In this document: one piece after another, positions 6,160 through 25,529 of the stretch | How the letters are laid out: each line of letters opens with the position of its first letter | Position numbering within the stretch: position 1 is the first letter of the stretch | NCBI GenBank assembly: GCA_964637935.1 | Contig: CAZWXC010000001.1 | Coordinates: 4,772 to 34,580 of the forward strand | From: an uncultured Flavobacteriales bacterium | GTDB lineage: Bacteria > Bacteroidota > Bacteroidia > Flavobacteriales_G > Salibacteraceae | Length of the DNA stretch: 29,809 bases | Direction of reading: 5' to 3' | Made by a program: the position numbers and the translations under genes | Notes under the pieces: model-generated | Database searches by the model: none | Told to the model about the DNA's origin: nothing | What the model saw: the letters and a program-made list of their open reading frames with translations, nothing else

Positions 6160-6402
6160 CGGGGGTGATTTTAATCAAGTAGTCATCAGTTGCAAACCAA
6201 TTTGCTGAAAATGTTACCATTTATCAGCTATTGGGAGGGTCTTGCAAAGTTGATGTGTTCTTAACTTGACAGTCTACTGCAAAACAAAATAAAAGTTGCA
6301 GTGAAATCCTATTTTATTGATGTAGTTCGCATAAGACAAGCGGTCATTCACATCAAAACCCTGATTACTTATCTCCATTCAACTGTTAACAACCATTGAT
6401 TT

Positions 6403-8883: not shown

Positions 8884-9000
8884 CGAAAAGAGAAATCAAA
8901 GGTTTCCAGTATGGTCTTTTCACATATCAAAATAGGCAAAACACCTATCACCCTTGACATACAGCTAAGTTTAAGCCCAACTAAACGAGCTTATCAATCA

Positions 9001-9285
9001 CTACCTCTTAGAAATTTTGTTGCCTGTAATATGCCGTTGACGCGAACACTTATGACGTGTAACATCATCTTCTCTTAAAGCAACATGTTTGGTTTTTCGG
9101 CCTTGCACACGGGCACGCCACATTTTAAAACTAGATTGCTTCATTTCTTTGCGCATCAACTCAATTACCTCTTGCTCTTTTAAACCAAATTGAAAATGTA
9201 TGGCAGAAAATGGGGTTCGGTCTTCCCATGCCATCTCTATGATTCTATCAATATCTCGCTCAGTAAATGCTCCAGCTTGCTCCAT
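9001..9285 (-). CDS. TIGR03643/DUF2805 family protein
   Basis: IDRIIEMAWEDRTPF.AI.FQFGL.EQEVI.LMRKEMK.SSFKMWR.RV.GRKTKH; this family is usually found next to photolyase genes. Confidence 0.9.
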   Translation of the reverse strand: MEQAGAFTERDIDRIIEMAWEDRTPFSAIHFQFGLKEQEVIELMRKEMKQSSFKMWRARVQGRKTKHVALREDDVTRHKCSRQRHITGNKISKR

Positions 9286-9320
9286 GTTAATGCAAAAATC
9301 AAGTTTCGGTTAGATTGACT

Positions 9321-9345
9321 TAAACCTTGCAACCCACTTTATGTT
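9321..9345 (+). promoter_or_regulatory. Candidate light-regulon promoter/operator motif, copy 1
   Basis: TAAAC-cttgcaacccacttta-TGTT, ending 11 nt before the DUF2256 ATG; similar to 19245-19270 and 23954-23979. Confidence 0.45.
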
Positions 9346-9356
9346 TTATGTACGAA

Positions 9357-9494
9357 ATGAAAAAAGAGCATCTTCCAACTAAAATATGCCTTGTTTGCCA
9401 AAGACCTTTTGCTTGGCGCAAAAAATGGCAACGCGATTGGGAAAATGTAAAATACTGCAGCGATCGATGCAGAAGATCATCTAAAGAATTATGA
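9357..9494 (+). CDS. DUF2256 family small Cys-rich protein (45 aa, not in the ORF track)
   Basis: Hand translation: [45 protein letters not shown]. The stop overlaps the cryptochrome start (ATGA at 9491-9494). Confidence 0.93.
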
Positions 9495-10864
9495 AAAAAA
9501 ATGCCTTAATCTGGATCAGAAACGATCAACGGCTGCATGATAACGAAGCATTGGTATCAGCCTTGGCCAATTATGAAGAAGTGCTTCCCGTTTTTGTTAT
9601 TGACAATAGGCTTTTTGAGCAATCGATCATAAATGAAAAAAGAGCATCAAATCGGAGGCTAAATTTCTTGGGAGAATCATTATTGAATCTTCAGTCAAAT
9701 TATAAAAATATTGGTGGCAACATACTTTGCCTGCAGGGCAAAGTGGCTGAAAAAATTATTTCTGTTTGCAAGCAATTTGAGATTGACACCATTTACACTT
9801 CGGCAGAATATACTGCCGAAGAGCAAAGTGATGAACTCCTAATAATGAAAGCAGGACTTAACCTGAAGCTTTTTCATCAGAATACATTGTTACACATTGA
9901 TGATCTAGATTTTGAAATAGAAAAGCTCCCAAACATATTTACAGAATTTAGAAAGCGAGTAGAAAAAGTTGGGCACTTCAGAACACCACTTCCGAAACCT
10001 TCTAAAATCAGAATTCCTGCTGGCATTGATTTTTCAGCAACGGAATTGAATATAAAAACACACTTGATTACGTCTATAGAAAACGACCCAAGGGCTGCAA
10101 TCACATTTGTTGGCGGAGAAACACAAGCTTTAAAAAGACTGCATTATTATCTGTTCGAATCTAAATCAATTGCCAACTATAAAGAGACAAGAAACGAGCT
10201 GTTAGGGGAAAACTACAGCTCAAAATTCTCAGCTTGGTTGACTTTAGGTAATATTTCAGCAAGGCAAATAAAAGCTGAAATAACAATGTTTGAAGAAAAC
10301 ATCACGAGCAACGAAAGCACTTATTGGCTGGTTTTTGAATTGCTTTGGCGAGACTATTTCAACTTTGTGAGCTTAAAATACGGCAAGAGGATTTTTACAA
10401 AATCTGGCATCAAAAAAGTAATACAAAACAGTGATGGTCAATCTAGCACTCATTTCGAAAACTGGAAAACTGGAAAAACTGGAAATACATTTGTTGATGC
10501 CAATATGGTAGAGCTTGTAAAAACAGGTTTTATGAGTAATCGTGGCCGTCAAAATGTTGCAAGTTATTTGGTGAAAGACCTAAATGTAAACTGGCAACTA
10601 GGAGCGTCTTTTTTCGAGCATCACCTCATTGACTTTGATGCCTCAAGCAACTTTTGTAATTGGCAATACGTAGCAGGCATAGGCAACGACCCAAGAGAAA
10701 ACCGATATTTCAACACCATTACTCAAGCACAGCGATATGATGCCGAAGCCATGTTCATCAAAACGTGGTTGCCCCATTTATCAAAACTTCATCCAAAAGC
10801 AGCAATTTCACCTTGGCTTTTCTATCCAAAAGAATACAAGCAACCTGTCTTTTTAAAGGAATAG
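9491..10864 (+). CDS. Cryptochrome DASH family photolyase-like flavoprotein
   Basis: N-terminal [53 protein letters not shown] and [16 protein letters not shown]. Confidence 0.92.
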
Positions 10865-10917: not shown

Positions 10918-13116
10918 ATGCAACCATTCAGTTATAACTTTTATCGATCGCTCGTGGCCAAAATTTGGCTTTCGGCACTTTTGCTAGCAAGTTTTAATTG
11001 GGCCAATGCACAACAAGCCGAGTTTAAATCCACGGCCTGTGCTCAACACGAAAAATATAGTCGGTTTGTTGAAGCTAGAGAATGTGCTCAAACCATCATA
11101 AAACACTCAAAAGACAGCATTGAACTGGCTTCGGCTTTCGCAGTCTTGGCTCGTGTGGAGGATGAGTACTTCAGTTACGAAAAAGGTGATTCACTCTTTA
11201 CCCTCGCTCTTTCCTATTTCCCGAAAAGGGAAAAAAACACCGTCTTATATGCCGATTTTATTTTTGAAATAGCACAATTTCATAAGGCCTATTACAAATT
11301 TGATACTGCACTTGGTTATTTAAAAGATGCACTGAAGCTCTCGAAAACTAAACATCAAGAGCTATCAAACCAAATGCAAATAGCTTCTGCCTTTGCGCTA
11401 ATTGATGAAAACGACAGCAGCGATCATTATTTAGACTTAGCAAAGCAAGGACTAGCAGAAGCTGGTGAAGATCAGCTATACATGGCAAGGTATTACCTTA
11501 ATTTAGGACAGTTTTATTTTGACAACAACGATTACGTTCGATGCGTTCCGGCTCTGGCTGCGGCCATAGATCATTATAAGCATGTATCTAAAAACTTAGA
11601 AAAAGCAGAAGCCTATTTCTTAATGGGTGATGCTTATTCAGCAGTGAGAAATAATGCGCGCGCAGTAGAACTTTACAAGGATGCACTTCTTCTTTATAAA
11701 ACGCTTTCGCAAGATGAACTGATAAACACCAAAAACACACTTGGCTGGGCATACTATCACTTGAAGCAGCCAGATAGTGCTTATTTATACTTAACATCGG
11801 CTCTGCAAGATTATCAGCAAATAGCGCCAAGTAGTATACTTAGAGCTTACCCTATAGGTAATTTAGGTCTAGTTTACTTAGAGCTTGACAGCTTAGCAAA
11901 AGCAGAAGAATTCTCGAAAAATGCAAGCCTACTATTTGCTCAACTTGGTTTTACCCCAGGTGTGGCAGAAGCGCTCAACAACCTAGGAAGCATTTATTTA
12001 AAGCAAAATAAACTATCCGAAGCAAAAGCAAAATTTACCGAAGCGCTGAATTTGAGTTACGATGTTTGGTATGAGCCCATCGAAGTAATGAACAGCCAAC
12101 TTGGGCTTTCTGAAATAGCACACCAGAGAAACCAACCTGAATTAGCTTTTGATTACCTAAAAAGTGCTACTCACATTAAAGACAGCATTTTCAATGTTGA
12201 AATTGCCACGGAGATTCTTGCCGATGAAATGGATAAGAGCATTTCGAGCGTAGAAAATAAATTGCGTCAAGCCGAAATGGAAAAAAACGAGAAAAATGTG
12301 GCACTCAAAAAGAGCCAGTTTGCGCTTATCGCGATAAGTATTACGTTGATCATTGTAATTATTGCGAGTATTGCGATTTCTGTAAGCTGGCGCCAGAGGC
12401 AAACAGCCATTAAGAAGCAAACCGAAATATTGTCTATCAACCAAGAAATCATAAGGATGATCAGTCATGATTTCAGAGGTCCTATGAATAATATCAGAAG
12501 CTTGATGGAACTCATTCGCGATGAAACCATGAGTATCCAAGATTTTAATGAAGTATCAGAAATCATTTATAGACAAACTTGTGACATCTCTCTTATGTTT
12601 GAAACCTTTGTGGGATGGGCGTTGAGTCAAAGTAACAACTACACTCCCAAAACCGAAAAGACAGATTGGACAGAGAATGTGCAGGGCGTTATCAACTTGC
12701 TTTCTCCGCTTGCAGCAATAAAGCAGATTGAACTTAAACTAGATAATGAACAAGATATAATCATTGATACCGACCGAATTGCGGCACAATTGGTACTTCG
12801 AAATTTAATCTCAAATGCAATAAAGTACTCTTTTGAAAATTCGACTATCGAAATAAATGTGTTTAAATCAGGAAACACATTGATAACAAGGATTCGAGAT
12901 TTTGGTGTAGGAATGGATCGAGAACGAATTGACGAAATTTTCAAATCAGATATTAATTCTAACGCTGGCACCAAAAATGAAATTGGCAGTGGATTAGGAC
13001 TTACCATGGCTTTGAAATTTGCAGAACTAAACGGTGGCAGAATAGAAGTAGAAAGTGAACTTGGCAAAGGCTCAGTGTTCACCTATTTTTTACCTATAAA
13101 GCCCCTGTCAGCTTAA
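10918..13116 (+). CDS. TPR-repeat membrane sensor histidine kinase (start moved from 10765 to ATG 10918)
   Basis: Signal peptide ending WANA|Q, several TPR-like repeats (e.g. AEALNNLGSIYLKQNKLSEAKAKFTEAL), TM FALIAISITLIIVIIASIAISV, H-box SHDFRGP, N-box NLISNAIKYS, G boxes DFGVGM and GSGLGL. The longer ORF start overlaps cry-DASH by 100 nt. Confidence 0.9.
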   Translation: MQPFSYNFYRSLVAKIWLSALLLASFNWANAQQAEFKSTACAQHEKYSRFVEARECAQTIIKHSKDSIELASAFAVLARVEDEYFSYEKGDSLFTLALSYFPKREKNTVLYADFIFEIAQFHKAYYKFDTALGYLKDALKLSKTKHQELSNQMQIASAFALIDENDSSDHYLDLAKQGLAEAGEDQLYMARYYLNLGQFYFDNNDYVRCVPALAAAIDHYKHVSKNLEKAEAYFLMGDAYSAVRNNARAVELYKDALLLYKTLSQDELINTKNTLGWAYYHLKQPDSAYLYLTSALQDYQQIAPSSILRAYPIGNLGLVYLELDSLAKAEEFSKNASLLFAQLGFTPGVAEALNNLGSIYLKQNKLSEAKAKFTEALNLSYDVWYEPIEVMNSQLGLSEIAHQRNQPELAFDYLKSATHIKDSIFNVEIATEILADEMDKSISSVENKLRQAEMEKNEKNVALKKSQFALIAISITLIIVIIASIAISVSWRQRQTAIKKQTEILSINQEIIRMISHDFRGPMNNIRSLMELIRDETMSIQDFNEVSEIIYRQTCDISLMFETFVGWALSQSNNYTPKTEKTDWTENVQGVINLLSPLAAIKQIELKLDNEQDIIIDTDRIAAQLVLRNLISNAIKYSFENSTIEINVFKSGNTLITRIRDFGVGMDRERIDEIFKSDINSNAGTKNEIGSGLGLTMALKFAELNGGRIEVESELGKGSVFTYFLPIKPLSA

Positions 13117-13648
13117 AAAAATCCTTGAGTACTTGCTTTACTGCACTTCTTTCAGATCTGGTATTGAGTATTTGCTTCCACCCTTCACTATCTTTTAAAA
13201 AAAAGCGGCTGCTGTCAGCTAAAATAGCTTGATAGGTATCAAAAGCAGCATTGAGGTTCTCTTGATTATTTGCCAACCCTAGATGATAGATATTACTATC
13301 AAAGCTGAGAATGCAATAACTATAATTCAGCGAATCTTCAACACCCAAAGGTTCAGGCAATATGTAAGCCTGATCGTGGAGCCAGTTACATACTATCGTA
13401 AAATTCAGTGCTGGTACCTGACGGTTCTTTACTCGTTTTTCGAAGCGAAAGAGCTCAAATTTTGCTTCTTCACGCCATTCCCGTTCATAATAATACTGCC
13501 TCAGATTTTTGAAAAACCGCTCGTCAGACTCCAATACACGAAACCCTAATTTCTCTTCTTTCAGCATACTTGCTTCATCATAAAATGCGATCATTAACAC
13601 AACAAGAATTGCCATGGTGGCAAAAAATAGTTTCTGAAGCTTTTTCAT
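13094..13648 (-). CDS. Hypothetical protein with N-terminal membrane anchor (184 aa)
   Basis: Hydrophobic LFFATMAILVVLMIAFY followed by a normal-composition soluble domain; overlaps the kinase 3' end by 23 nt. Confidence 0.7.
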   Translation of the reverse strand: MKKLQKLFFATMAILVVLMIAFYDEASMLKEEKLGFRVLESDERFFKNLRQYYYEREWREEAKFELFRFEKRVKNRQVPALNFTIVCNWLHDQAYILPEPLGVEDSLNYSYCILSFDSNIYHLGLANNQENLNAAFDTYQAILADSSRFFLKDSEGWKQILNTRSERSAVKQVLKDFFKLTGAL

Positions 13649-13899: not shown

Positions 13900-14763
13900 A
13901 TGTTACGCACCCTTATAACGTCCCTAGTTATAGCAACCCAAATAAGCGCATTTGGTAGCGAAGTAAAAATCAGCGAGCTGAACAATGCGCAAGACAACTT
14001 TAAGTATGAAAATGCTGGAGTTGCAGTTTCGCCAGCGCACCTCAGATTCAATGTAGAACCAGGAGGAAGCAAAACGTCTAAAGTGACGATTAACAATGAC
14101 ACTGAAAGACCAGGTTCATTCAAACTATCGTTTAACGATTTTAACATGAATGGCTACGGCAAAAGTGAATTTTTGAAACCTGGAACCGGTGACCACAGTC
14201 TTTCTAAATGGATCAACGTTTCACCATCATTTGTTGAACTTAAGCCAGGCGAGAAAAAAGAAATCGTAGTTACCATAAGCGTTCCGGCTGATGATGCCGA
14301 TGCAAATAAGGCTGCATGGTGTGTGTTACTTGTAGAACAAGCTGAGGAACGTAAGACCATTGATCCGGGGAATAATTCAGAACAAATAGCATTTGGTATC
14401 ATACCAACATTTGCGTTTGGAGTATTTATCTATCAAAATCCACCAAATGTTGAGTCGAACAAAGTAGACATTATAGATTTTGACTTCTTCAGTAGTGAAA
14501 CTGAAAAAACACTTGCCATAGATGTTGAAAATGTGGGTGATGGCATCACTTACTGCAGCATTTATGTTGAACTCACCAACCTAAAAACAGGCGCAAGCGA
14601 GAAAATCGCAATGAAAACATTCACGATCGTGCCTGGCTTAAAAAGGGTATTTAAATTTCCTTTACCAGAAAACTACAGCACCGGAAGCTACTCTGCAGTA
14701 AGCGTGCTAGATTTTGGCAGCGATGAAGAATTGCAAGCTGCTGAAATAGAATTTACACTGTAA
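13900..14763 (+). CDS. Putative periplasmic fimbrial chaperone (two Ig-like domains, PapD/CfaA/DUF916-like)
   Basis: Signal peptide; GVAVSP..LRF, TINN, WINVSP..VELKPGEKKEIVV, and G1-like strand FAFGVFIYQNP; the second domain has IDVENVGDG and GSYSAVSVLDFG. Confidence 0.7.
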   Translation: MLRTLITSLVIATQISAFGSEVKISELNNAQDNFKYENAGVAVSPAHLRFNVEPGGSKTSKVTINNDTERPGSFKLSFNDFNMNGYGKSEFLKPGTGDHSLSKWINVSPSFVELKPGEKKEIVVTISVPADDADANKAAWCVLLVEQAEERKTIDPGNNSEQIAFGIIPTFAFGVFIYQNPPNVESNKVDIIDFDFFSSETEKTLAIDVENVGDGITYCSIYVELTNLKTGASEKIAMKTFTIVPGLKRVFKFPLPENYSTGSYSAVSVLDFGSDEELQAAEIEFTL

Positions 14764-14810: not shown

Positions 14811-15587
14811 ATGAAAAAAATCACAGGAACCGCAGCTGCATTTCTAGGACTTGCATTTGCCGCAAACGCTCAGTTAATCGATGAAAAAGATGTTACAGTA
14901 ACCATGGATTTACAGCCAGTACTGCAACTTGAGATGACTACGCCAAACCAAATCGAGTTCACATTCGATGAAATTTCTGAATACTACGCTGGTATTACAC
15001 AATATGCGGCTACCATTCTAAAAGTAAGTTCAACTGTAAGTTGGGATTTGTATGCAGTTGGCCGTTCAAACGGAACAAACGGTGCTGAATTCTGGGATCA
15101 ACAAATTGACTATGGTAACGACAACCCAAACGCAATTCCTGATCTTCCATTGAGCTTATTAGAACTGCGTCAATCTCAAGCAAACAACGGTGATGGTGCT
15201 GCAACAGGCGCATTCACAGATTACAACCAAGCTTTTTCTCCATCAGGAACTCCAAGTGCTGGTAACAGTCTTTATGTAAACGGTGGTACAATCACACCTC
15301 CAACCGCAGATGACAAGTATATTGCTGGTCACTCAGGTACTTCAGGTGTGGCTGGTGATGACTTTATTGCTGGTGGTAGCTACTTAACTCAAACTGGAAA
15401 TACTTCTGATTACTATTACGCAATCGATTACCGTATTCTTCCTGGTTTGCCAGCTATTTTCCCTAACGCTGCTGATGCAGACGGAGCAACATTTGAAGAC
15501 ATCATTACTGTAAATGGCGCTGGTTCTTATGCTGAGCCAGGTGTTTACACTATGTACGTTCAGTATGTTCTTCTTGAAGATCAATAG
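14811..15587 (+). CDS. Putative major fimbrial subunit with N-terminal donor strand
   Basis: Signal peptide ending AANA|Q; mature N-terminus EKDVTVTMDLQPVLQL; C-terminus PGVYTMYVQYVL; G/T/N/D/A-rich and Cys-free; followed by a hairpin. Confidence 0.7.
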   Translation: MKKITGTAAAFLGLAFAANAQLIDEKDVTVTMDLQPVLQLEMTTPNQIEFTFDEISEYYAGITQYAATILKVSSTVSWDLYAVGRSNGTNGAEFWDQQIDYGNDNPNAIPDLPLSLLELRQSQANNGDGAATGAFTDYNQAFSPSGTPSAGNSLYVNGGTITPPTADDKYIAGHSGTSGVAGDDFIAGGSYLTQTGNTSDYYYAIDYRILPGLPAIFPNAADADGATFEDIITVNGAGSYAEPGVYTMYVQYVLLEDQ

Positions 15588-15611
15588 TAGCAAGGCATCA
15601 ATATAATATTG

Positions 15612-15683: not shown

Positions 15684-16292
15684 ATGAAACTGTTTTTTAC
15701 AGTATTTTTTCTGACGCTTTTCCCAGTTTATAACTGGGCTCAGCTGCATTGTGGCACGGTGAACATAGAACCAAACACACCTGTTAATGCCAATTTCACA
15801 TTCGACTCATTTACCGATTATGAAGGTGGAATAACCATTAACAATGTTGCAACCATAAGAGTCAAGGTAGAGCATCAAGCTATACCAGACTTAGATTGTA
15901 AGTGGTTTTTATACATGCAAGTAAACAATAACCCAGGCTCAGGCACCGCAGCTCCTAATTGGGAAAAACTCTCAAACTATGGAAGCACTGGTGGTTCTGA
16001 ACCGTCTATCGACATCTTAGAAATTAAGGTTCGAAACAATTGTCAAACTTCACCTATTGACGGTATTTACCAGAGTTTTACCACCAATGGAGATGTAATT
16101 GACATTATCGCAGATTTGCTTCCACTTACAGCTGCTGGCGCTTGTGCTGCTAACACCAATGGTCCAGGAAGCTTTCTCACGAATTATGACGAATACACCT
16201 TTACGGTAGATATTAGAGTAGCGCCTGGCTACACATTCAACCCAGGCATTTATGAGCTTGATATTCTCTTTCACTTAGAAGAGCAACTTTAA
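15684..16292 (+). CDS. Putative minor/tip fimbrial subunit, 202 aa (start moved from 15609 to ATG 15684)
   Basis: Signal MKLFFTVFFLTLFPVYNWA|Q. It shares FTFD...Y..GIT and the C-terminal PG.Y strand with the major subunit and has 4 Cys. The 15609 start would translate through the terminator. Confidence 0.65.
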   Translation: MKLFFTVFFLTLFPVYNWAQLHCGTVNIEPNTPVNANFTFDSFTDYEGGITINNVATIRVKVEHQAIPDLDCKWFLYMQVNNNPGSGTAAPNWEKLSNYGSTGGSEPSIDILEIKVRNNCQTSPIDGIYQSFTTNGDVIDIIADLLPLTAAGACAANTNGPGSFLTNYDEYTFTVDIRVAPGYTFNPGIYELDILFHLEEQL

Positions 16293-16320: not shown

Positions 16321-19242
16321 TTGAAAAACCTCCTTACCATACTATTATTGGTGCTTTTAACAGGCTTGAATTGTAGCAACAGCTTTGCTCAGTTGAGGTC
16401 TTTGGATGCATCACAATTTGAGGTAAGTTTCTCAAAAGATGAAATAGAATTCTTAAACACCGAGTTGGTTTCTAACCCTATTAAGGTGGTCAACAAATCG
16501 AAAGAAGATGTGGTGGTTTACCTAGAAGTGGGTGCGCCACCTGCTTGGAAAGCGCTCGGTTCTACTAAGCGAAGCTATTCTTTGCCCGCAGGCGACACAG
16601 CATATATTCCTGTAAGGCTTTTACCAAACGCCAAAGTAGAAGGAAACACCAAGTATGCCATCAACGCTATTCTAAGAGACCAAGATGGTTTTGCCTTGGG
16701 TTTCGGCTCATTTTATTGTTTCACAAAAAAAATTGTTCAATGGGAAATGAGCATATTACCAGAAGATCGAGTTTACCTTAAAAATGGTGAGTCGGAAGGC
16801 GACTTTCAGGTTTCGATGCTCAACGTAGGTAATTACACTGACGAATTTCAACTTTCTATTAAAGGTGGTGAACGAGAAGATGTGTTGTTGATGGATACGC
16901 TTGGCAACATTATTAAGCAACCGAGTTACACATTGGCCCTTGATGCTGGCCAAGACACAACATTGAGTTTTAGGGTAAAACCAACATCCATCAAACGAAA
17001 TTTTAGAACGGTCAGCATGACCAGTCATCGCCCGCAAAGCGAGACTGACGAAAGGAGGTTTAGGCTTTATGCCACCAGCCAAGAAGCAAAAAATATGGAT
17101 AAGACCATACCGAAGCGCGGGGCCAAGGTTGACTTCATAAGCCTCGCAAACGAGGCAGCCGTTTCGCCCTATGGAAGTGATTACTTCCCGCTAATAGCCG
17201 AAGCCCAAATACAGAACATACTAAGTGATTATAGTTACATGTCCGTTAATCTCCGGGGAATAAAACAGTTTCAAGGCGATAAGCGGCTTGTCTATTTTAC
17301 ACAACTGCTCTATTCTCAAAATTATTTCAGCACCAATTTCGCCCAAAACTTGCCTTGGTATTTGGGCTATTTCGATAAAAACTGGGACCTACAACTTGGC
17401 TTAGTAAGTGGCCGAAGTATCGGTATTCCATCAAGTGGAAGAGGAATAAGTTCGAGCTACCGAATCAATGAGCAACATAAAGTGGGCGCACACCTCACCC
17501 GCAGTCCATCCATGTTTGGCCCAAGCCGAATTTTATCGATGGGCGCTTATCACGAATACAGCGGCAACAAGTTTAGGGTTACCTCAAGCCTTACTCGAAA
17601 CCAAGATAGCTTGATCAATGCCAACACAAATGTGCTTAGCACAAGAGCTAGTTTTAGAATTGGCAGAAACCATAATGTAGGCGCACTTATAGCTGGAAGC
17701 AATACCAACTATACCGACACCAATGCCACTCGTTTGGGAATAATCAGCGGTTTGACCTACTCGGGAAATATGCTCAACGAAAAGCTGAGAGCAACATTAA
17801 ATACGCGCTACAGCAGCCGTTCTTTTGGTGTTAGTAATTCAGAGCGTTTTAGTGGAAACTCGCGCATTAGCTACCAGCTCAACAATCGTTGGCAATTGCA
17901 AGGTTTGAATAACCTGAATATAAACAACCGCTTTCAAAGCCAGTTTAGCGATACTGTGTTGAACAAATTCATGACCTCAACCAACCGCGTGAACTTTGTG
18001 TCTAGAGCAAACAAAGGAACGTTGCAAGCAGGTGTTTTCTATGATATCAACAGCCAAACCAATTATAACAATCACTACAGAGGTTTAGCATTTAACTATA
18101 GTAAGTTCGACTTTAGTAAAAACATGCTTTATAACGGAAGTATCAAATTCGGATACAATCGCCCACAAAACATGCCCGAGATTTCAGAATATTTTACTGC
18201 ACAAGTTGCATTGTTGATGCGTATTAAGACAGTTACATTCAATTTCCGCTATTTCTACGGGCCATCAAACCCTCAGGTGTTGATCACAAACGTAACCAGC
18301 ACTTATCCGCAACAGTTTAGAGCTTCAACGCAATATCAATACTTGTTTAAAAACACCCATTTCGTATTACAAACTGGTGGAAACTACACCTATAACAACC
18401 TTATCAACGGGCATTCGGTGAGTGTTTTTCCAGAGTTCTTCTATTTCACAAATGATGGTTGGCGCTTGAGTGTAAATGCTAATTACACCCTGACTTCTTC
18501 TAACTTCCAAAAAGCGACTAGCAACCTAAACATTACTCGAAATTTAGAAGATCCAAACCCCGGACCAACAGTGAGCAATACCATGCGCTTTGGGGTTACC
18601 GTTCGCAAAGAATTCGGTATTCCGGTTCCGTTTTCGAAAAGCAAAAACTATGATCTTGATTTTGTGGCATTTTATGACCTAAACGGCAACGGAGTGCACG
18701 ATAGAGATGAGCCAACCATTGAAAATGTGGTGCTTACGCTAGAAGACAAACAAATAATTACCAACCTGCGTGGCGAAGCCAAATTGAAAAACGTGCCTAG
18801 TGGTTTTTATGGCATTGGTGTGTTGCCGCTCAATAGCATCAACGGCTGGTTTGCTGAGGTTGAAGACAGCTTGTTTATTGGCGAGCACCAAACCGTTTAC
18901 ATCCCATTCATGCGTGGAGTAAAAGTGAGCGGAAAAGTGATGATTGACCTTGACCAACGCACCCGTAGTGAAGATGATGTGTTTGACCTATCTAACATTA
19001 AAATTACTGCTGTAAACGGCAAAGCTTACAACACACTAACCTCGCTTGACGGTAGTTTCGAGTTGTATTTACCAAACGGCACTTACACTATTTCGCTTGA
19101 CGAAAATGTGCTTACAACCAAGTATCAATTGATGCAAAACAACATGGAGGTAACGCTAAGTCGCGACCTCGAAAATATGTTTGTCACCTTCTTTATTGTT
19201 GAAAAGAGAAGGTCCATAAACATTAAAAAATTCGATAAATAA
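16321..19242 (+). CDS. Large outer-membrane protein, usher-like: 2 N-terminal Ig-like domains, beta-strand-rich core, 2 C-terminal prealbumin/SdrD-B-like domains
   Basis: TTG start, signal ending SFA|Q. Aa ~290-765 is an alternating aromatic/polar strand pattern ending RFGVTVRKEF, followed by FYDLNGNGVHDRDE...RGEAKLKNVPSGFY and VSGKV...DGSFELYLPNGTYTISL. Confidence 0.65.
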   Translation: MKNLLTILLLVLLTGLNCSNSFAQLRSLDASQFEVSFSKDEIEFLNTELVSNPIKVVNKSKEDVVVYLEVGAPPAWKALGSTKRSYSLPAGDTAYIPVRLLPNAKVEGNTKYAINAILRDQDGFALGFGSFYCFTKKIVQWEMSILPEDRVYLKNGESEGDFQVSMLNVGNYTDEFQLSIKGGEREDVLLMDTLGNIIKQPSYTLALDAGQDTTLSFRVKPTSIKRNFRTVSMTSHRPQSETDERRFRLYATSQEAKNMDKTIPKRGAKVDFISLANEAAVSPYGSDYFPLIAEAQIQNILSDYSYMSVNLRGIKQFQGDKRLVYFTQLLYSQNYFSTNFAQNLPWYLGYFDKNWDLQLGLVSGRSIGIPSSGRGISSSYRINEQHKVGAHLTRSPSMFGPSRILSMGAYHEYSGNKFRVTSSLTRNQDSLINANTNVLSTRASFRIGRNHNVGALIAGSNTNYTDTNATRLGIISGLTYSGNMLNEKLRATLNTRYSSRSFGVSNSERFSGNSRISYQLNNRWQLQGLNNLNINNRFQSQFSDTVLNKFMTSTNRVNFVSRANKGTLQAGVFYDINSQTNYNNHYRGLAFNYSKFDFSKNMLYNGSIKFGYNRPQNMPEISEYFTAQVALLMRIKTVTFNFRYFYGPSNPQVLITNVTSTYPQQFRASTQYQYLFKNTHFVLQTGGNYTYNNLINGHSVSVFPEFFYFTNDGWRLSVNANYTLTSSNFQKATSNLNITRNLEDPNPGPTVSNTMRFGVTVRKEFGIPVPFSKSKNYDLDFVAFYDLNGNGVHDRDEPTIENVVLTLEDKQIITNLRGEAKLKNVPSGFYGIGVLPLNSINGWFAEVEDSLFIGEHQTVYIPFMRGVKVSGKVMIDLDQRTRSEDDVFDLSNIKITAVNGKAYNTLTSLDGSFELYLPNGTYTISLDENVLTTKYQLMQNNMEVTLSRDLENMFVTFFIVEKRRSINIKKFDK

Positions 19243-19270: not shown

Positions 19271-19292
19271 CATCACACCTTTGGTCACCACC

Positions 19293-20762
19293 ATGAAAAC
19301 AGCCATTATTATCGGTTCAGGAATTGCTGGCTTGGCATCAAGCATAAGACTCAGTTTAGCTGGCTACAGCGTGAAAGTATTTGAAGCAAACAGCTATGCT
19401 GGCGGAAAGCTTCACGCCTTTAGTCTTGGCCAATATCGTTTTGATGGCGGACCATCGCTGTTTACCATGCCCCATTATGTTACCGAGCTTTTTACCCTAG
19501 CGGGGAAAAACCCCAAAGACTATTTCGAGTATGAAAAAGCCGAAACTGCTTGCCATTATTTTTGGGAAGACGGCACCTTTATTCGCGCTTTTGCCGAAAC
19601 TGAAAAATTTGCAGCCGAAGTAGAGCAAAAACTGGGCGTTGAAGCCAAGGTAATAACCGATTACATGGCTCATGCAAAGAACATTTACGATCATTCGGGT
19701 AAGATATTCCTAGAAAAATCGCTTCACAAACCCAGCACTTGGCTTAGCAAAGAAACCTTGATTTCATTGCTCAAAATCAAGCAATTTGATTTAACCAAAA
19801 GCATGCACCGCGCCAACAAAATACGCTTGGGCGAAGACCATTTGGTGCAACTTTTCGATCGATTTGCTACTTATAATGGTTCAAACCCATACAAAGCACC
19901 GGGCATTTTGAATGTGATTCCATGGTTAGAACATGGCTTCGGCACGTTTTTCCCAAAAGGCGGAATAGAACAAATTCCAGAATCACTGTTTAAGCTTGCA
20001 CAGGAACTTGGTGTTACGTTTCACTTTTCTCATAAAGTAGATGAAATAGTGCTTGATAAAAAGCGTGCTATTGGCATAAAAACTGGCGGAAAGTTGCACA
20101 AAGCCGACATCGTAATGAGCAACATGGATGTTCATTTCACTTACAGAAAACTAATGCCTAAGGCTAAAGCTCCCGAACGAATTTTAAACCAAGAACGCTC
20201 TTCTTCTGCCCTTGTTTTTTATTGGGGAATCAAGAAAAACTTTCCTCAATTAGATCTCCACAATATCTTTTTCAGCAAAGAATACAAAGCAGAATTTGAT
20301 GCACTATTTGATCAACAAACTATTGGCAATGATCCAACTGTTTACATCAATGTATCGAGCAAAATTGCACCAGAAGATGCACCCAAAGACAGCGAGAATT
20401 GGTTTGTAATGGTAAATGCGCCCAACCACAACGGGCAACATTGGCCGCAACTCATCCAAAACACAAGATCAGCTGTATTGAAAAAGCTAAGCAAGATTCT
20501 AGGCGAAGACATTGCTCCGCTGATTGAAGAAGAAAAAATTTGGTCGCCACCCGAAATTGAGGCTGATACATTGAGCTATAAAGGCGCACTTTATGGCAAT
20601 AGCTCAAACAGCCAAATGGCTGCTTTTCTGCGACATCCAAACTTTAGCAATCAAATTAACAACCTCTACTTTTGTGGCGGAAGCGTGCATCCTGGTGGCG
20701 GCATTCCGCTTGCATTGCTTAGTGCAAAAATTGCTTGTGAATTTGTAGCATCGCGCAACTAA
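19293..20762 (+). CDS. crtD: 1-hydroxycarotenoid 3,4-desaturase CrtD (ATG 19293; in-frame TTG at 19281 is an alternative)
   Basis: GSGIAGLA dinucleotide-binding motif, FEANSYAGGKL...YRFDGGPSLFTMP, RFATYNGSNPY.APG, LYFCGGSVHPGGGIPL. The pattern fits flavobacterial CrtD rather than CrtI, and the gene is fused by overlap to cruF. Confidence 0.85.
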   Translation: MKTAIIIGSGIAGLASSIRLSLAGYSVKVFEANSYAGGKLHAFSLGQYRFDGGPSLFTMPHYVTELFTLAGKNPKDYFEYEKAETACHYFWEDGTFIRAFAETEKFAAEVEQKLGVEAKVITDYMAHAKNIYDHSGKIFLEKSLHKPSTWLSKETLISLLKIKQFDLTKSMHRANKIRLGEDHLVQLFDRFATYNGSNPYKAPGILNVIPWLEHGFGTFFPKGGIEQIPESLFKLAQELGVTFHFSHKVDEIVLDKKRAIGIKTGGKLHKADIVMSNMDVHFTYRKLMPKAKAPERILNQERSSSALVFYWGIKKNFPQLDLHNIFFSKEYKAEFDALFDQQTIGNDPTVYINVSSKIAPEDAPKDSENWFVMVNAPNHNGQHWPQLIQNTRSAVLKKLSKILGEDIAPLIEEEKIWSPPEIEADTLSYKGALYGNSSNSQMAAFLRHPNFSNQINNLYFCGGSVHPGGGIPLALLSAKIACEFVASRN

Positions 20763-21382
20763 TGGAATGGAATAAAATCAACATATCGATTGCTGTGCTC
20801 ATCATATTTCACATGGTGGGTATCGGTGGCGTGTTGCTGGCAAATCCTATTGAGTTTTTGCGCTTAACGCCTCTCAACTTGCTGCTTACACTCGCTATTG
20901 TTTTAGTAAACCACCAGCAATGGAAGTTCGCATGGGTTTTTATTGTGACTTATGTAGCTGGCTTTTTTGTAGAAGTACTTGGTGTAAATACAGGTTTCCC
21001 TTTCGGGGAATATGAGTACGGCAGCGTACTTGGCCCAAAATTGTTTGAAACGCCATTAATGATTGGCGTAAATTGGTTGATATTGCTCTATGCCAGCAAC
21101 GCCATTTCAAAGCATTTCGGCTTGACCGTAATAACAAAAGCACTGGGCGCTGCAGCGCTAATGGTGGTGCTTGATTATGCCATTGAACCTGTGGCTATTA
21201 AATATGATTTTTGGACTTGGGCGCAAGCCGAACCACCGTTTGAAAATTACATGGCTTGGTTTGTTATTGCCTTCTTGCTTTCGCTGGTTTGGCAATGGAC
21301 AAAAATTGAATTGAACAAGAAAATTGCGATCGCTGTTTACAGCGTAGAACTTGGCTTTTTCGCATTGCTAAATTTGTTTTAG
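20762..21382 (+). CDS. cruF: Carotenoid 1,2-hydratase CruF (DUF422 family)
   Basis: E.LGV.TG.PFGEY.Y...LGP.L...PL.IG.NW, D...EPVA....FW.W and P..NY.AWF; TAATG overlap with crtD. Confidence 0.85.
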   Translation: MEWNKINISIAVLIIFHMVGIGGVLLANPIEFLRLTPLNLLLTLAIVLVNHQQWKFAWVFIVTYVAGFFVEVLGVNTGFPFGEYEYGSVLGPKLFETPLMIGVNWLILLYASNAISKHFGLTVITKALGAAALMVVLDYAIEPVAIKYDFWTWAQAEPPFENYMAWFVIAFLLSLVWQWTKIELNKKIAIAVYSVELGFFALLNLF

Positions 21383-21386
21383 AATT

Positions 21387-21845
21387 ATGATTTTGAATGT
21401 CATTATAACCATCGGCACCTTCTGCATCATGGAGTTTATGGCTTGGGCCACGCACAAATATGTGATGCACGGTTTAGGCTGGTATTTTCACAGAGATCAT
21501 CATCAGCATGAAGCTGGCGTGTTTGAGAAAAACGATGTTTACTTTCTTATTTATGCCATACCAAGTTGGCTGTTTATCATGTTTGGAATGATGGCTGGCA
21601 ACGATTGGCGCACATTTGTAGGTTTTGGCATTTTGCTTTATGGCATTGCCTATTTCTTGGTTCATGAAGTGTTCATACACCAGCGTTTGCCTTGGTTTAA
21701 ACGCACCGACAATGTCTATTTTAGAGCTATAAGAAAAGCACACAAAGTGCATCACAAGCATTTGGGCAAAGAAGAGGGCGAATGTTTCGGAATGCTGATT
21801 GTGCCGTTGAAATATTTTAGAGAAGCCACAAAATCAGTGCGTTAA
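21387..21845 (+). CDS. crtZ: Beta-carotene 3-hydroxylase CrtZ
   Basis: His boxes HKYVMHG, HRDHH, YF.VHE..IHQR and H..HH; also FEKND and E.FG.L. Confidence 0.93.
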   Translation: MILNVIITIGTFCIMEFMAWATHKYVMHGLGWYFHRDHHQHEAGVFEKNDVYFLIYAIPSWLFIMFGMMAGNDWRTFVGFGILLYGIAYFLVHEVFIHQRLPWFKRTDNVYFRAIRKAHKVHHKHLGKEEGECFGMLIVPLKYFREATKSVR

Positions 21846-21870
21846 TTTTATTTGAATAATAACCACCACT

Positions 21871-22569
21871 TTGGATTTCATACCTGATCGATATATTTAT
21901 TTACTCATCAATGTGCTTACCATAGCTTATCCGCTTGCACAGAGCTATGAAAAACGCATCCGATTGCTACAGCATTGGAAAGCCATTTTTACGAGTATTG
22001 CGATCACTGGTGCTGTGTTTTTAGCTTGGGATGAGCTTTTTACGCAGCTCGAAGTGTGGGGTTTTAATGGTCGCTACCTTACAGGTGTTTACATCGGTGC
22101 GTTGCCCATAGAAGAATGGGGCTTTTTCTTGACTGTTCCGTTTGCCTGCATCTTTATATACGAAGTGCTGAATCATTTTATCAAGAAAGACATTTTCGCA
22201 AACAGTCATCAAGCCATCACCTTATTTTTCTTGATGGTAACCACATTTTTAGGTTACTATTTTCATGATAGAATGTACACTTCCACAAGCTTTTTCTTTG
22301 CTGCTATATTGCTTTTAGGGCAATTGATGGTGTTTCGCTACAGCTGGATGGGCCGATTTTACATGATGTACTTTGTGAGTTTAATTCCCTTTCTAATCAT
22401 GAATGGATGGCTTACTGGCAGTTTTACAGACGAACCCATTGTTTGGTACAACAACCTCGAAAACATGGGCTTGCGCATTTTCACCATACCAGCAGAAGAC
22501 ACTATTTATTTGCTGGGTATGCTGCTACTCACCTTTATGGTATACGAGAAGGTGAAAGTGAAGCCTTAA
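21871..22569 (+). CDS. crtY: Lycopene cyclase, membrane-bound two-repeat (CrtYcd/CarR-type) domain protein
   Basis: Hydrophobic with two repeats: W.FN..YL.G......PIEE..FF and V.YN..E....RI.TIP.ED; TTG start; last gene of the crt run. Confidence 0.85.
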   Translation: MDFIPDRYIYLLINVLTIAYPLAQSYEKRIRLLQHWKAIFTSIAITGAVFLAWDELFTQLEVWGFNGRYLTGVYIGALPIEEWGFFLTVPFACIFIYEVLNHFIKKDIFANSHQAITLFFLMVTTFLGYYFHDRMYTSTSFFFAAILLLGQLMVFRYSWMGRFYMMYFVSLIPFLIMNGWLTGSFTDEPIVWYNNLENMGLRIFTIPAEDTIYLLGMLLLTFMVYEKVKVKP

Positions 22570-23284: not shown

Positions 23285-23614
23285 CTATTCAGAAATTAGC
23301 TTCAAAAGGTTTTCAAGTTCTTTATCCGAAAGACTCTCTTTATCAGACTTGTCAAAAATGGCAAGCAAGTAAACCGTTGTTTCTGCTACAATAATGTGTG
23401 TGATTACTCGTGCTCCACCACTTTTTCCTTTTCCTTTAGATTTGATTCCTAGGCGAATCTTGTAACAATTGTTTCCTAAAGAAACCCCTTGAAATGGATC
23501 ATTTTCTAGGCTTTCTATTAAAACAGCAAAATCAGATTTAAGTGAAGGGTGTTTTTTTGACAACTTCTTCAATTCCTTAGCAAATTTCGGAATAGCTATT
23601 ATGCTATAATTCAT
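23285..23614 (-). CDS. Type II toxin, RelE/ParE superfamily
   Basis: F.KELKKL.KK.PSL..D, LG..CYKIRL.I.SKGKGKSGGARVI and VYLL.IFDKSDKE; overlaps the upstream small gene by 11 nt. Confidence 0.85.
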   Translation of the reverse strand: MNYSIIAIPKFAKELKKLSKKHPSLKSDFAVLIESLENDPFQGVSLGNNCYKIRLGIKSKGKGKSGGARVITHIIVAETTVYLLAIFDKSDKESLSDKELENLLKLISE

Positions 23615-23987: not shown

Positions 23988-25529
23988 ATGCAACCATTCA
24001 ACACCCTACGCCTCATACTTGGCGATCAGCTCAACGCTTCACATTCTTGGTATAAAACCAAAGACGAATCTGTGCTTTATGTAATGATGGAATTGCGCTC
24101 TGAAACCGACTACGCAACGCATCATATTCAAAAAGTAATTGGATTTTTCGCAGCAATGCGAGGTTTTGCAGATGCTTTGATTAAAGCTGGTCATCAAGTA
24201 ACATACTTGAAAATAAACGATGCTAACAACCGACAGACATTTACTGAAAACCTTAACGTTTTAATAGAACAATATCAGATAGAAAGCTTTGAATATCAAT
24301 TGCCAGACGAGTGGCGATTAGACGAGGAATTATCACGTTTTTGCACAAATGCTGTATTGGAAACCTCAGCGGTTGATTCAGAGCATTTTTACACTTCCCG
24401 CTTTGAACTGAAGCAACAATTTGAGGACAAAAAGCAAATTGTAATGGAAAGCTTTTATCGCGCCATGCGCAAAAAACATGATGTGATGATGGTGGCCGCT
24501 AAACCCATTACTGGCAAGTGGAATTATGATGCCCAAAACCGTAAAAAGCTGCCTAAAAACCATGAGGTTATTGAACCACTACTTTTCAAGCATGACTTAT
24601 CCGAAATAGAACAAGAAATAAAAGCAGCTGGCATAAAAACCATTGGTAACGCAGATAGCACTGCATTTTCTTGGCCCATAAACAGACAAGAATCGCGTCA
24701 AATACTGCAGTTTTTCCTGAAAGAATGCCTGCCGCAATTTGGTGATTTTCAAGATGCTATGCACCGTGAATATTGGAGCATGTATCACGCTCGGCTCTCC
24801 TTTTCTATGAACTTGAAAATGATCAGTCCTAAAGAAGTAGTTGATGCGGCTGTTCAACATTGGTTAGCTCATCAAGACGAAATCCATATTTCGCAAATTG
24901 AAGGTTTTGTAAGGCAGATCTTAGGCTGGCGCGAATACATGCGCGGCCTTTATTGGTGGAAAATGCCTGCATTCAAATCGATGAACTTTTTCGAAAACAA
25001 AGAAAAATTACCTGATTGGTACTGGACTGGAAATACCAAAATGGAATGCCTAAAAACCGCCATCAATCATTCGCTTGATTACAGCTATGCTCATCACATA
25101 CACCGGCTGATGGTCACAGGTAATTTTGCGCTGCTAGCAGGTGTTGACCCTGACCAAGTTGATGCTTGGTATTTGGGAATTTACATTGACGCCATAGAAT
25201 GGGTTGAAATAACCAACACGCGCGGAATGAGCCAATTTGCAGATGGCGGAATTACAGCAACCAAGCCGTATGTTTCTAGCGCGGCTTACATTCAAAAAAT
25301 GAGTCATTATTGTGAAAATTGCCATTACGACTACAAGAAAAAAACAGGTGAAAATGCTTGTCCGTTCAACTCGCTCTATTGGAATTTTTATGATCGAAAC
25401 AGAGCGCTTTTAGGCAAAAATCCCCGCATTGGAATGATGTATAACATTTGGGATAAAATGGATACAGAAATTAAAAAGGAATACTTATTGCAAGCTGAAA
25501 AATATCTTTCTGAAGTTAATTACATTTGA
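23988..25529 (+). CDS. Fe-S bacterial cryptochrome/(6-4) photolyase (CryB/PhrB, COG3046 class)
   Basis: LRLILGDQL, HH.QK...FFAAMR.FA, HHIHRLMVTGNF, TKPYVSS.AYI.KMS.YC..C.YD and ACPFNSLYW; four candidate cluster cysteines (MECL, YCENC, ACPF). Confidence 0.92.
   Translation: MQPFNTLRLILGDQLNASHSWYKTKDESVLYVMMELRSETDYATHHIQKVIGFFAAMRGFADALIKAGHQVTYLKINDANNRQTFTENLNVLIEQYQIESFEYQLPDEWRLDEELSRFCTNAVLETSAVDSEHFYTSRFELKQQFEDKKQIVMESFYRAMRKKHDVMMVAAKPITGKWNYDAQNRKKLPKNHEVIEPLLFKHDLSEIEQEIKAAGIKTIGNADSTAFSWPINRQESRQILQFFLKECLPQFGDFQDAMHREYWSMYHARLSFSMNLKMISPKEVVDAAVQHWLAHQDEIHISQIEGFVRQILGWREYMRGLYWWKMPAFKSMNFFENKEKLPDWYWTGNTKMECLKTAINHSLDYSYAHHIHRLMVTGNFALLAGVDPDQVDAWYLGIYIDAIEWVEITNTRGMSQFADGGITATKPYVSSAAYIQKMSHYCENCHYDYKKKTGENACPFNSLYWNFYDRNRALLGKNPRIGMMYNIWDKMDTEIKKEYLLQAEKYLSEVNYI

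Follow-up and report, generated by a model that had tools for sequence, protein, structure and literature searches.

Which protein carries the subunits of a donor-strand fibre across the outer membrane of a bacterium, and does that protein belong to the usher family? The question is raised by a stretch of 29,809 nucleotides (nt), here called the window, from an uncultured Flavobacteriales bacterium of the Salibacteraceae (GenBank assembly GCA_964637935.1, contig CAZWXC010000001.1, positions 4,772 to 34,580 of the forward strand). A four-gene cassette on its plus strand ends with a large gene at 16321–19242, which encodes a protein of 973 residues from a TTG start, hereafter the barrel protein. 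The original prediction had described this protein as a new usher subfamily, possibly regulated by calcium. Our analysis suggests, with a probability of roughly 65%, that the barrel protein is the outer-membrane pore for export and assembly in a donor-strand pilus system of four genes, guided by a chaperone, that makes TLP-1-type fibres in Bacteroidota; i.e., it probably works like an usher, with no detectable membership in the usher family.

The cassette encodes a fibre protein of known structure. The gene for the major fibre subunit (14811–15587, +) encodes 258 residues, and a phmmer search of the PDB matched its product to 9IKK (E 3.4e-49) and 9IKJ (E 6.7e-48) over residues 22–256. The match begins where the signal peptide is predicted to be cleaved and runs to the C-terminus, that is, over the whole mature protein, indicating that this neighbour is homologous to the TLP-1a/b fibril protein over its full length. 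The TLP-1a/b fibrils are 8-nm tubes from 0.22-µm-filtered pond water and are held together by donor-strand exchange (PMC11494351; PDB 9IKJ, 9IKK). The donor strand passes from protomer n+4 to protomer n, with a rise of 11.5 Å, a twist of 75.1° and about 4.8 protomers per turn (PMC11494351); therefore, the tube consists of four separate donor-strand chains. The TLP-1 paper names neither the organism nor the assembly genes, gives a best database match below 40% identity and does not discuss assembly or export of the fibre; "operon" and "gene cluster" are absent from it, and "usher" occurs in its reference list only (PMC11494351). In the literature, we found no paper in which TLP-1, Bacteroidota DUF916 proteins or the barrel family are connected with a gene cluster or with machinery of the outer membrane.

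The next gene (15684–16292, +) encodes a second subunit of about 202 residues, a paralogue of the major subunit (BLASTP E 2e-5; hhalign of the two family profiles 99.1%). Its longest open reading frame (ORF) extends upstream to a TTG at 15609; the ATG at 15684, where alone a proper signal peptide begins, is the more probable start. The alignment with the major subunit is offset at the N-terminus by about 10–11 residues. The mature N-terminus of the second subunit is shorter by this length, and therefore most of its donor-strand segment is gone. Judged from its sequence, this protein may be the tip or the initiator subunit.

The first gene of the cassette (13900–14763, +) encodes 287 residues with a signal peptide and belongs to the DUF916/WxLIP_PGBD family. 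Its product scored 29.3 bits against DUF916 (PF06030; cutoff 27.3), all 44 aligned homologues matched the same family, and weaker Pfam matches to families of the PapD clan were found. None of the 44 members matched DUF3324 (PF11797) at E ≤ 0.01. A structural model of the protein, with a predicted local distance difference test score (pLDDT) of 84.6, consists of two immunoglobulin (Ig)-like domains, and its best fold match was WxLIP, i.e., the protein is PapD/WxLIP-like. It ends in a β-strand and has neither a hydrophobic tail nor a C-terminal membrane anchor. We regard it as a candidate soluble periplasmic chaperone.

A pathway of this kind has a precedent in monoderms. In October 2026, experiments showed that the DUF916/DUF3324 protein ElrE acts as a donor-strand chaperone of the WxL pili of Enterococcus (preprint 10.64898/2026.10.17.759780). 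The Elr system was reported to be confined to Bacillota, in a screen that demanded a nearby WxL gene (preprint 10.64898/2026.10.17.759780); because of this demand, the screen could not have caught the Bacteroidota cassette. The cassette resembles the Elr/WxL pathway (ElrE; PDB 9I1Y, 9I25) in having a DUF916 chaperone beside pilin genes, with WxLIP as the best fold match, and in the logic of the pathway, chaperone-guided donor-strand exchange. However, the Elr chaperone is membrane-anchored, whereas the chaperone-like protein here appears to be soluble and periplasmic and lacks the paired DUF3324 module; the Elr pilins are sortase-anchored WxL proteins, whereas the subunits here are of the TLP-1 type and have no WxL match; and the Elr system lacks any outer-membrane component.

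The association of the barrel gene with these partners was assessed in 80 Bacteroidota loci with a barrel homologue (27–54% identity), 61 of which had at least 3 kb of upstream sequence. The order chaperone-like gene, subunit, subunit, barrel gene was found on one strand in 61 of these 61 loci, down to about 30% barrel identity, and the median gap between the second-subunit and barrel genes was 6 nt. These loci come from Flavobacteriales, Salibacteraceae, Crocinitomicaceae, Vicingaceae, Bacteroidales, Chitinophagaceae and Lentimicrobiaceae; the isolate Flavicella marina 2A-7 (locus L059) is among them. Homologues of the chaperone-like protein also occur in Wenyingzhuangia and Polaribacter species. 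The four-gene cassette recurs amid unrelated flanks. These conserved neighbours, a PapD/WxLIP-like chaperone and a TLP-1 subunit homologue, strongly suggest a role of the barrel protein in pilus assembly.

The route across the outer membrane can be narrowed further. Neither subunit had any match in Pfam, including to the sorting domain of the type IX secretion system (Por_Secre_tail), and the solved TLP-1 fibre contains the whole mature chain, with no C-terminal sorting domain removed. Therefore, the cassette's own barrel, the sole outer-membrane component that the cassette encodes, is the only evident outer-membrane route, and the barrel protein is a candidate exporter of a TLP-1-type fibre.

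Departures from the usual gene arrangement were also seen. One further locus (L099, 1863–7449) is permuted, with the barrel gene followed by the chaperone-like gene and the two subunit genes on one strand. In two loci from metagenome-assembled genomes (MAGs), the chaperone-like gene is split into two ORFs (L070, 3405–4290; L098, 3500–4379), and in L098 the barrel gene (5962–8946) is also split, into parts of 756 and 191 residues; these splits could be frameshifts, decay or assembly errors.

The barrel family is large. An exhaustive sequence search returned 891 cluster representatives, and the fold family reaches Synergistota, Gemmatimonadota and Acidobacteriota, where its members are uncharacterised. 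A profile of the close family gave one full-length and four partial matches in 400 sampled Bacteroidota genomes besides that of the host, which is an undercount because two candidates were scored per genome. Atlas clusters of barrel relatives bear the automatic name COG1470.

We then considered the barrel protein itself. The ORF at 16321–19242 proved to be real, and the anatomy described for it from sequence held in an AlphaFold2 model built from a close-family alignment of 18 sequences (average pLDDT 80; most of the barrel exceeds 85); the diverse family was represented by an alignment and profile of 51 sequences. The length of 973 residues and the N-terminus are borne out by 18 close homologue clusters of the same length, one of which is labelled as a Salibacteraceae MAG. 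Residues 1–23 (16321–16389, +) form a Sec-type signal peptide, which is predicted to be cleaved after SFA at residue 23. No lipobox was read in the N-terminal sequence, and the family consensus N-terminus in the 18-sequence alignment is hydrophobic and ends in AQ. The host genome is a 3.1-Mb MAG that is 78% complete and carries the barrel gene in a single copy; the window DNA was found again in aquifer and groundwater metagenomes.

The mature protein starts with two Ig-like domains of the E-set type (16417–16983, +), which are β-sandwiches at residues 33–134 and 141–221 of the model, as had been proposed from Ig-type motifs correctly placed at residues 58–102 and 168–221. The two domains are weakly similar to each other (hhalign 57%). 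A disordered linker (residues 224–244) and a pre-barrel hairpin (residues 244–280) follow (16990–17166, +; pLDDT 35–78), and the hairpin carries a motif conserved in the family alignments, F272..L275.N277. The β-barrel (17167–18624, +; residues 283–768) consists of long antiparallel strands, about 26 in number, within residues 288–768, as assigned by DSSP on the predicted model with the pieces 697–702 and 705–709 taken as one kinked strand. The last strand holds the sequence RFGVTVRKEF (residues 757–766), at which the original prediction had ended the strand-rich region. The loops between strands are all at most about 22 residues long, the longest being 332–346, 646–664 and 727–750; therefore, no plug domain is inserted in the barrel, in agreement with the earlier statement that no plug could be recognised. 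The model showed neither a small or missing barrel nor a narrow TonB-receptor or porin fold, outcomes that the original prediction had named as refuting it.

Two prealbumin-like C-terminal domains (CTDs), also anticipated from sequence, complete the protein. CTD1 (18646–18948, +; residues 776–876) is an SdrD_B-like and CTD2 (19000–19203, +; residues 894–961) a CarboxypepD_reg-like β-sandwich of the prealbumin fold. In the barrel protein the Pfam matches were sub-threshold only (FixG_C at 54–118, SdrD_B at 783–833 and CarboxypepD_reg at 890–926), and the same domains recur in 10 to 17 of the 18 family members, with SdrD_B in 16/18 for CTD1 and CarboxypepD_reg in 17/18 for CTD2. Across the family, the N-terminal Ig domains matched FixG_C or NPCBM_assoc and CTD2 matched CarboxypepD_reg or SpaA. 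The two CTDs matched each other at 92.7% in hhalign; by this profile comparison, CTD2 is a duplicate of CTD1. In the PDB, the hidden Markov model (HMM) of the 51 sequences matched NOMO2 repeats alone (E 8e-4), through the C-terminal domains.

CTD1 contains an EF-hand-like loop (18676–18711, +; residues 786–797) of the form D-x-N-x-N-G-x-x-D-x-x-E, which has the spacing of an EF-hand loop; the sequence DLNGNGVHDRDE begins at D786 (nt 18676), exactly where it had been placed earlier. Among the 51 diverse members, position 1 is D in all 51, positions 3 and 5 are each N or D in 48, position 9 is D or E in 45 and position 12 is E or D in all 51; D786, G789 and E797 are invariant within the close family. 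The loop probably binds Ca2+ and stiffens the domain. The calcium regulation originally suggested is drawn from this conserved EF-hand-like loop and stays putative.

The topology was assessed from longer relatives. Other members of the barrel family have C-terminal linkers of 180–570 residues, some with a terminal SPOR domain. In such proteins a low-complexity linker leads to a C-terminal SPOR domain, at 31.7 and 24.4 bits versus a cutoff of 21; among the long tails, those of P0032 and P0066 contain the domain, that of P0036 gave a marginal match, and those of P0022, P0030 and P0019 gave none. SPOR binds peptidoglycan, and therefore the C-terminal domains of the barrel relatives are periplasmic. 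An even strand count together with a periplasmic C-terminus would place the N-terminal Ig pair in the periplasm too, given the number of strands in the model. Two other relatives, P0034 (residues 1–620) and P0037 (residues 1–481), have long Lys/Ala/Gln-rich extensions after the signal peptide. Fusions of cassette proteins were rejected as an explanation for these extensions, which are repeats and neither chaperone nor subunit.

From these data we infer export through the barrel, docking, an order of subunits and Ca2+ binding, and we propose the following mechanism. The subunits would cross the inner membrane by Sec, and in the periplasm the soluble two-domain chaperone of the DUF916 type would cap the open groove of each subunit. 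The chaperone–subunit complexes would then bind to the barrel protein by way of its periplasmic Ig domains, its C-terminal domains or both, and the donor-strand-linked chain of folded subunits would be threaded out through the plug-less 26-strand barrel. The short second subunit would probably enter first, as the tip. Complex prediction with the chaperone (residues 35–287), the Ig pair (residues 28–230) and the C-terminal pair (residues 772–973) of the barrel protein, run without controls and scored for the chaperone, gave 0.26 and 0.20 against a mark of 0.32, values that speak neither for nor against docking. The Ig pair and the chaperone-like protein were not significantly similar to each other (hhalign 10–27%). 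The pre-barrel hairpin may be a gating element and, speculatively, a candidate for closing the plug-less pore. With about 237 residues, the mature subunit seems to be bigger than classical pilins; as a further speculation, this might explain the two strands that the barrel has in excess of an usher.

The geometry of the barrel has a parallel that speaks for the export pore. MtrB is a 26-strand plug-less barrel, the lumen of which holds a folded protein of 30 × 35 Å (PMC7198977). In the predicted model the best match to the barrel was MtrB, with 432–443 residues aligned versus about 360–370 for PapC and FimD, and MtrB, the sheath of the MtrCAB electron conduit (PDB 6R2Q), shares the 26-strand plug-less geometry. 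Alternatively, the barrel protein could be a passive sheath or anchor: the chaperone alone would drive polymerisation as in Elr, and the barrel would let the chain cross or hold the base of the fibre as MtrB holds MtrA, with its periplasmic domains, and the SPOR domains of its relatives, tying it to the cell wall. ElrE-type chaperones alone do nucleate donor-strand polymerisation, with no pore (preprint 10.64898/2026.10.17.759780), and the SPOR tails of the relatives point to anchoring on peptidoglycan. Nevertheless, we consider this explanation unlikely. Conservation throughout the family covers both the Ig pair and the two duplicated C-terminal domains, suggesting specific interactions in the periplasm that go beyond a passive hole, and TLP-1 fibres occur free in 0.22-µm-filtered water, so the subunits get fully outside. 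In addition, the barrel protein has no MtrB_PioB match in Pfam, and its gene lies beside those of a DUF916 protein and of TLP-1-type subunits, with no cytochrome partner, whereas MtrB itself has neither the N-terminal Ig pair nor the C-terminal domains. The likeness to MtrB is most simply explained by the same strand number and shape.

Export by the barrel protein, as proposed above, would be the task of an usher, and we therefore compared the protein with that family. By definition, an usher is a 24-strand barrel that an internal plug occludes (PMC13721041). In Foldseek searches the top PDB chains were FimD and PapC (E 2.5e-13 to 1e-10, about 800 aligned columns), and the matches among AFDB clusters include an annotated usher fragment at rank 29. 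VIA-align against FimD ran through both C-terminal domains (model 286–960 to chain 137–833). However, Usher (PF00577), PapC_N and PapC_C did not match the barrel protein in Pfam at E ≤ 0.1; a six-frame search of the host genome with PF00577 was empty, with a positive E. coli control; and the 51-sequence family HMM found no usher in the PDB at E ≤ 10. Against a profile of the nine classical ushers of E. coli K-12, which does not contain archaic and alternate ushers, the family profile gave 8.7% in hhalign for the whole protein and at most 1.2% for each part (barrel, N-terminal domain, CTD1 and CTD2). The plug domain of PapC has about 75–80 residues, and a plug of that type fits none of the inter-strand loops of about 22 residues or fewer. 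The N-terminus consists of two E-set Ig-like domains, and no usher N-terminal domain was recognisable there in Pfam or in the model.

The barrel protein and the FimD/PapC ushers are alike in layout and context and differ in other features. Both have a large outer-membrane barrel followed by two periplasmic β-sandwich C-terminal domains, and both are accompanied by genes for a periplasmic chaperone of two Ig-like domains and for donor-strand-exchange subunits, one of which lacks a donor strand. Meanwhile, the barrel here has about 26 strands instead of 24 and no inserted plug, the N-terminus is a pair of E-set Ig domains in place of the usher N-terminal domain, and the CTDs are duplicates of the SdrD_B/CarboxypepD_reg type with an EF-hand-like loop. 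The partner chaperone is of the DUF916 type and not of the PapD type, and the associated fibre is a four-chain tube. That is, the protein departs from what defines the usher family in sequence, number of strands and plug, and shares the barrel-plus-two-CTD layout. The idea of a new usher subfamily thus stands for the layout and the pilus-assembly context and fails for kinship. Likewise, FimD and PapC did rank first among PDB chains, as that idea would have it; however, MtrB fits the barrel far better, and the 24 strands expected of an usher were not borne out.

The same data bear on whether the protein is a true fimbrial usher that has diverged extremely, sharing descent with FimD, PapC and CsuD, and that has gained two strands, lost its plug and replaced its N-terminal domain. 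The Foldseek ranking, the usher fragment among the AFDB matches, the order of barrel, CTD1 and CTD2, and the context of a chaperone with donor-strand subunits are all usher-like and would fit such an origin. We nevertheless judge common descent quite improbable, as the usher families and PDB ushers were not recovered, hhalign remained low for the whole protein and lower for each domain (with archaic ushers outside the profile), the model has 26 strands and no plug, and the partner chaperone falls in DUF916, a family reported to be disjoint from the PapD chaperones (preprint 10.64898/2026.10.17.759780).

A role in the outer membrane that has nothing to do with the fibre, for instance that of a solute channel or an envelope tether kept in the cassette for regulatory or historical reasons, is very hard to credit: the wider fold family does occur in several phyla, with at least one locus lacking a chaperone gene, but the fixed-order linkage with near-zero spacing across Bacteroidota orders, the absence from the barrel protein of a TonB plug domain (PF07715, inside a 22-strand barrel), the absence of transporter partners among the neighbours of the gene, and the lack of any other outer-membrane route in the cassette for a fibre known to be extracellular all argue against it.

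Several points weigh against the proposed export pore. What connects the fibre to the barrel is gene linkage, and sequence and profile searches (Pfam, the family HMM against the PDB, and hhalign) show no similarity to ushers. By analogy with Elr, in which the chaperone alone nucleates polymerisation, a catalytic usher role would not be demanded by the chemistry. The proposal accounts neither for the closure of a plug-less 26-strand pore nor for the coordination of four chains. A four-chain 8-nm tube cannot pass one such pore as a tube; either several pores cooperate, or the TLP-1 chains associate outside the cell. Finally, in one genome (G083; locus L008, G083:C1:2950000-2966000), the gene of a distant, full-length member of the barrel family (ORF 7018–9792, −; 924 residues; E 1.4e-80 against the family profile) is adjoined upstream by a 186-residue secreted protein only (ORF 10003–10563, −), with no chaperone-like gene. 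The evidence for this neighbour as a remote TLP-1-type subunit was weak and inconsistent (hmmsearch E 1e-6, 16.6 bits; hhalign 2–24%). A chaperone-less subfamily of the barrel family may exist. The next gene at this locus encodes a DapD-type succinyltransferase.

The export pore may also be set in a wider frame. To our knowledge, the ushers described so far all fall in a single family, the barrel of which has 24 strands and a plug. We tentatively suggest, as a proposal that is unlikely to hold in full, that the barrel family is a pilus platform that arose independently of ushers and represents a third chaperone-guided donor-strand pathway, linking the Elr/WxL pili of monoderms to diderms (Bacteroidota and perhaps Gemmatimonadota, Acidobacteriota and Synergistota). 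The platform would be an oligomer of pores, proposed because TLP-1 is a four-chain tube; the oligomer would extrude four chains side by side, the Ig pair would oligomerise, and the Ca2+ loop of CTD1 would take part in gating.

Evidence for expression of the cassette was sought in aquifer metatranscriptomes. Contigs from three libraries, at ≥ 99% identity, match the major subunit gene in part in three runs, the second subunit gene in part in two runs and the barrel gene over 151 nt in one run, which is only a weak hint that the cassette is expressed, as RNA libraries can contain DNA. The chaperone gene and most of the barrel gene had no contig in the RNA libraries, and contigs cannot show absence of expression. 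The motif TAnnTTTG was not found in the 250 nt upstream of 13900 and was not enriched in the window (20 found versus 38 expected), and scans for sigma-70 promoters and terminators at the ends of the cassette did no better than shuffled sequences. A Bacteroidota-type −7 motif, TATGTTTG, lies at 19176–19183 (+), within the barrel gene near its 3′ end, with the start of crtD (19281) following some 100 nt later; from its sequence and position, the motif may serve the carotenoid genes as their promoter.

The downstream carotenoid genes (crtD, cruF, hydroxylase and lycopene cyclase) lie outside the cassette. They belong to a set of light-protection genes that flank it, namely a photolyase (9491–10864), crtD-cruF-hydroxylase-lycopene cyclase (19281–22569) and a DPRP-type photolyase-related protein (23988–25529). 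This neighbourhood is kept in the 54%-identical relative L001 and not in more distant relatives. A divergent ORF of 184 residues (13094–13648, −) was rejected as a part of the cassette, being conserved in 1 of the 80 loci. Farther out, 3787–6159 (−) and 6403–8883 (−) encode tandem paralogues of about 800 residues with a YfiR/HmsC-like DUF4154 domain and a C-terminal SpoIIE/PP2C phosphatase domain, and 23285–23614 (−) is a RelE-family toxin-like ORF of 109 residues (PF06296, E 1e-8), at the place of which L001 has a ParE-type gene.

Pili of the chaperone-usher type are textbook knowledge; here, a protein for which no kinship to ushers could be detected appears to do the same job. If export through the barrel is true, the orphan TLP-1 fibrils would gain a group of producers and an assembly machine, and chaperone-guided donor-strand assembly would extend to Bacteroidota and possibly to other diderm phyla. 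It would also pose the problem of how a four-chain 8-nm tube is built from pores that each pass one chain. Cultured carriers of the cassette exist, and the question is therefore directly testable.

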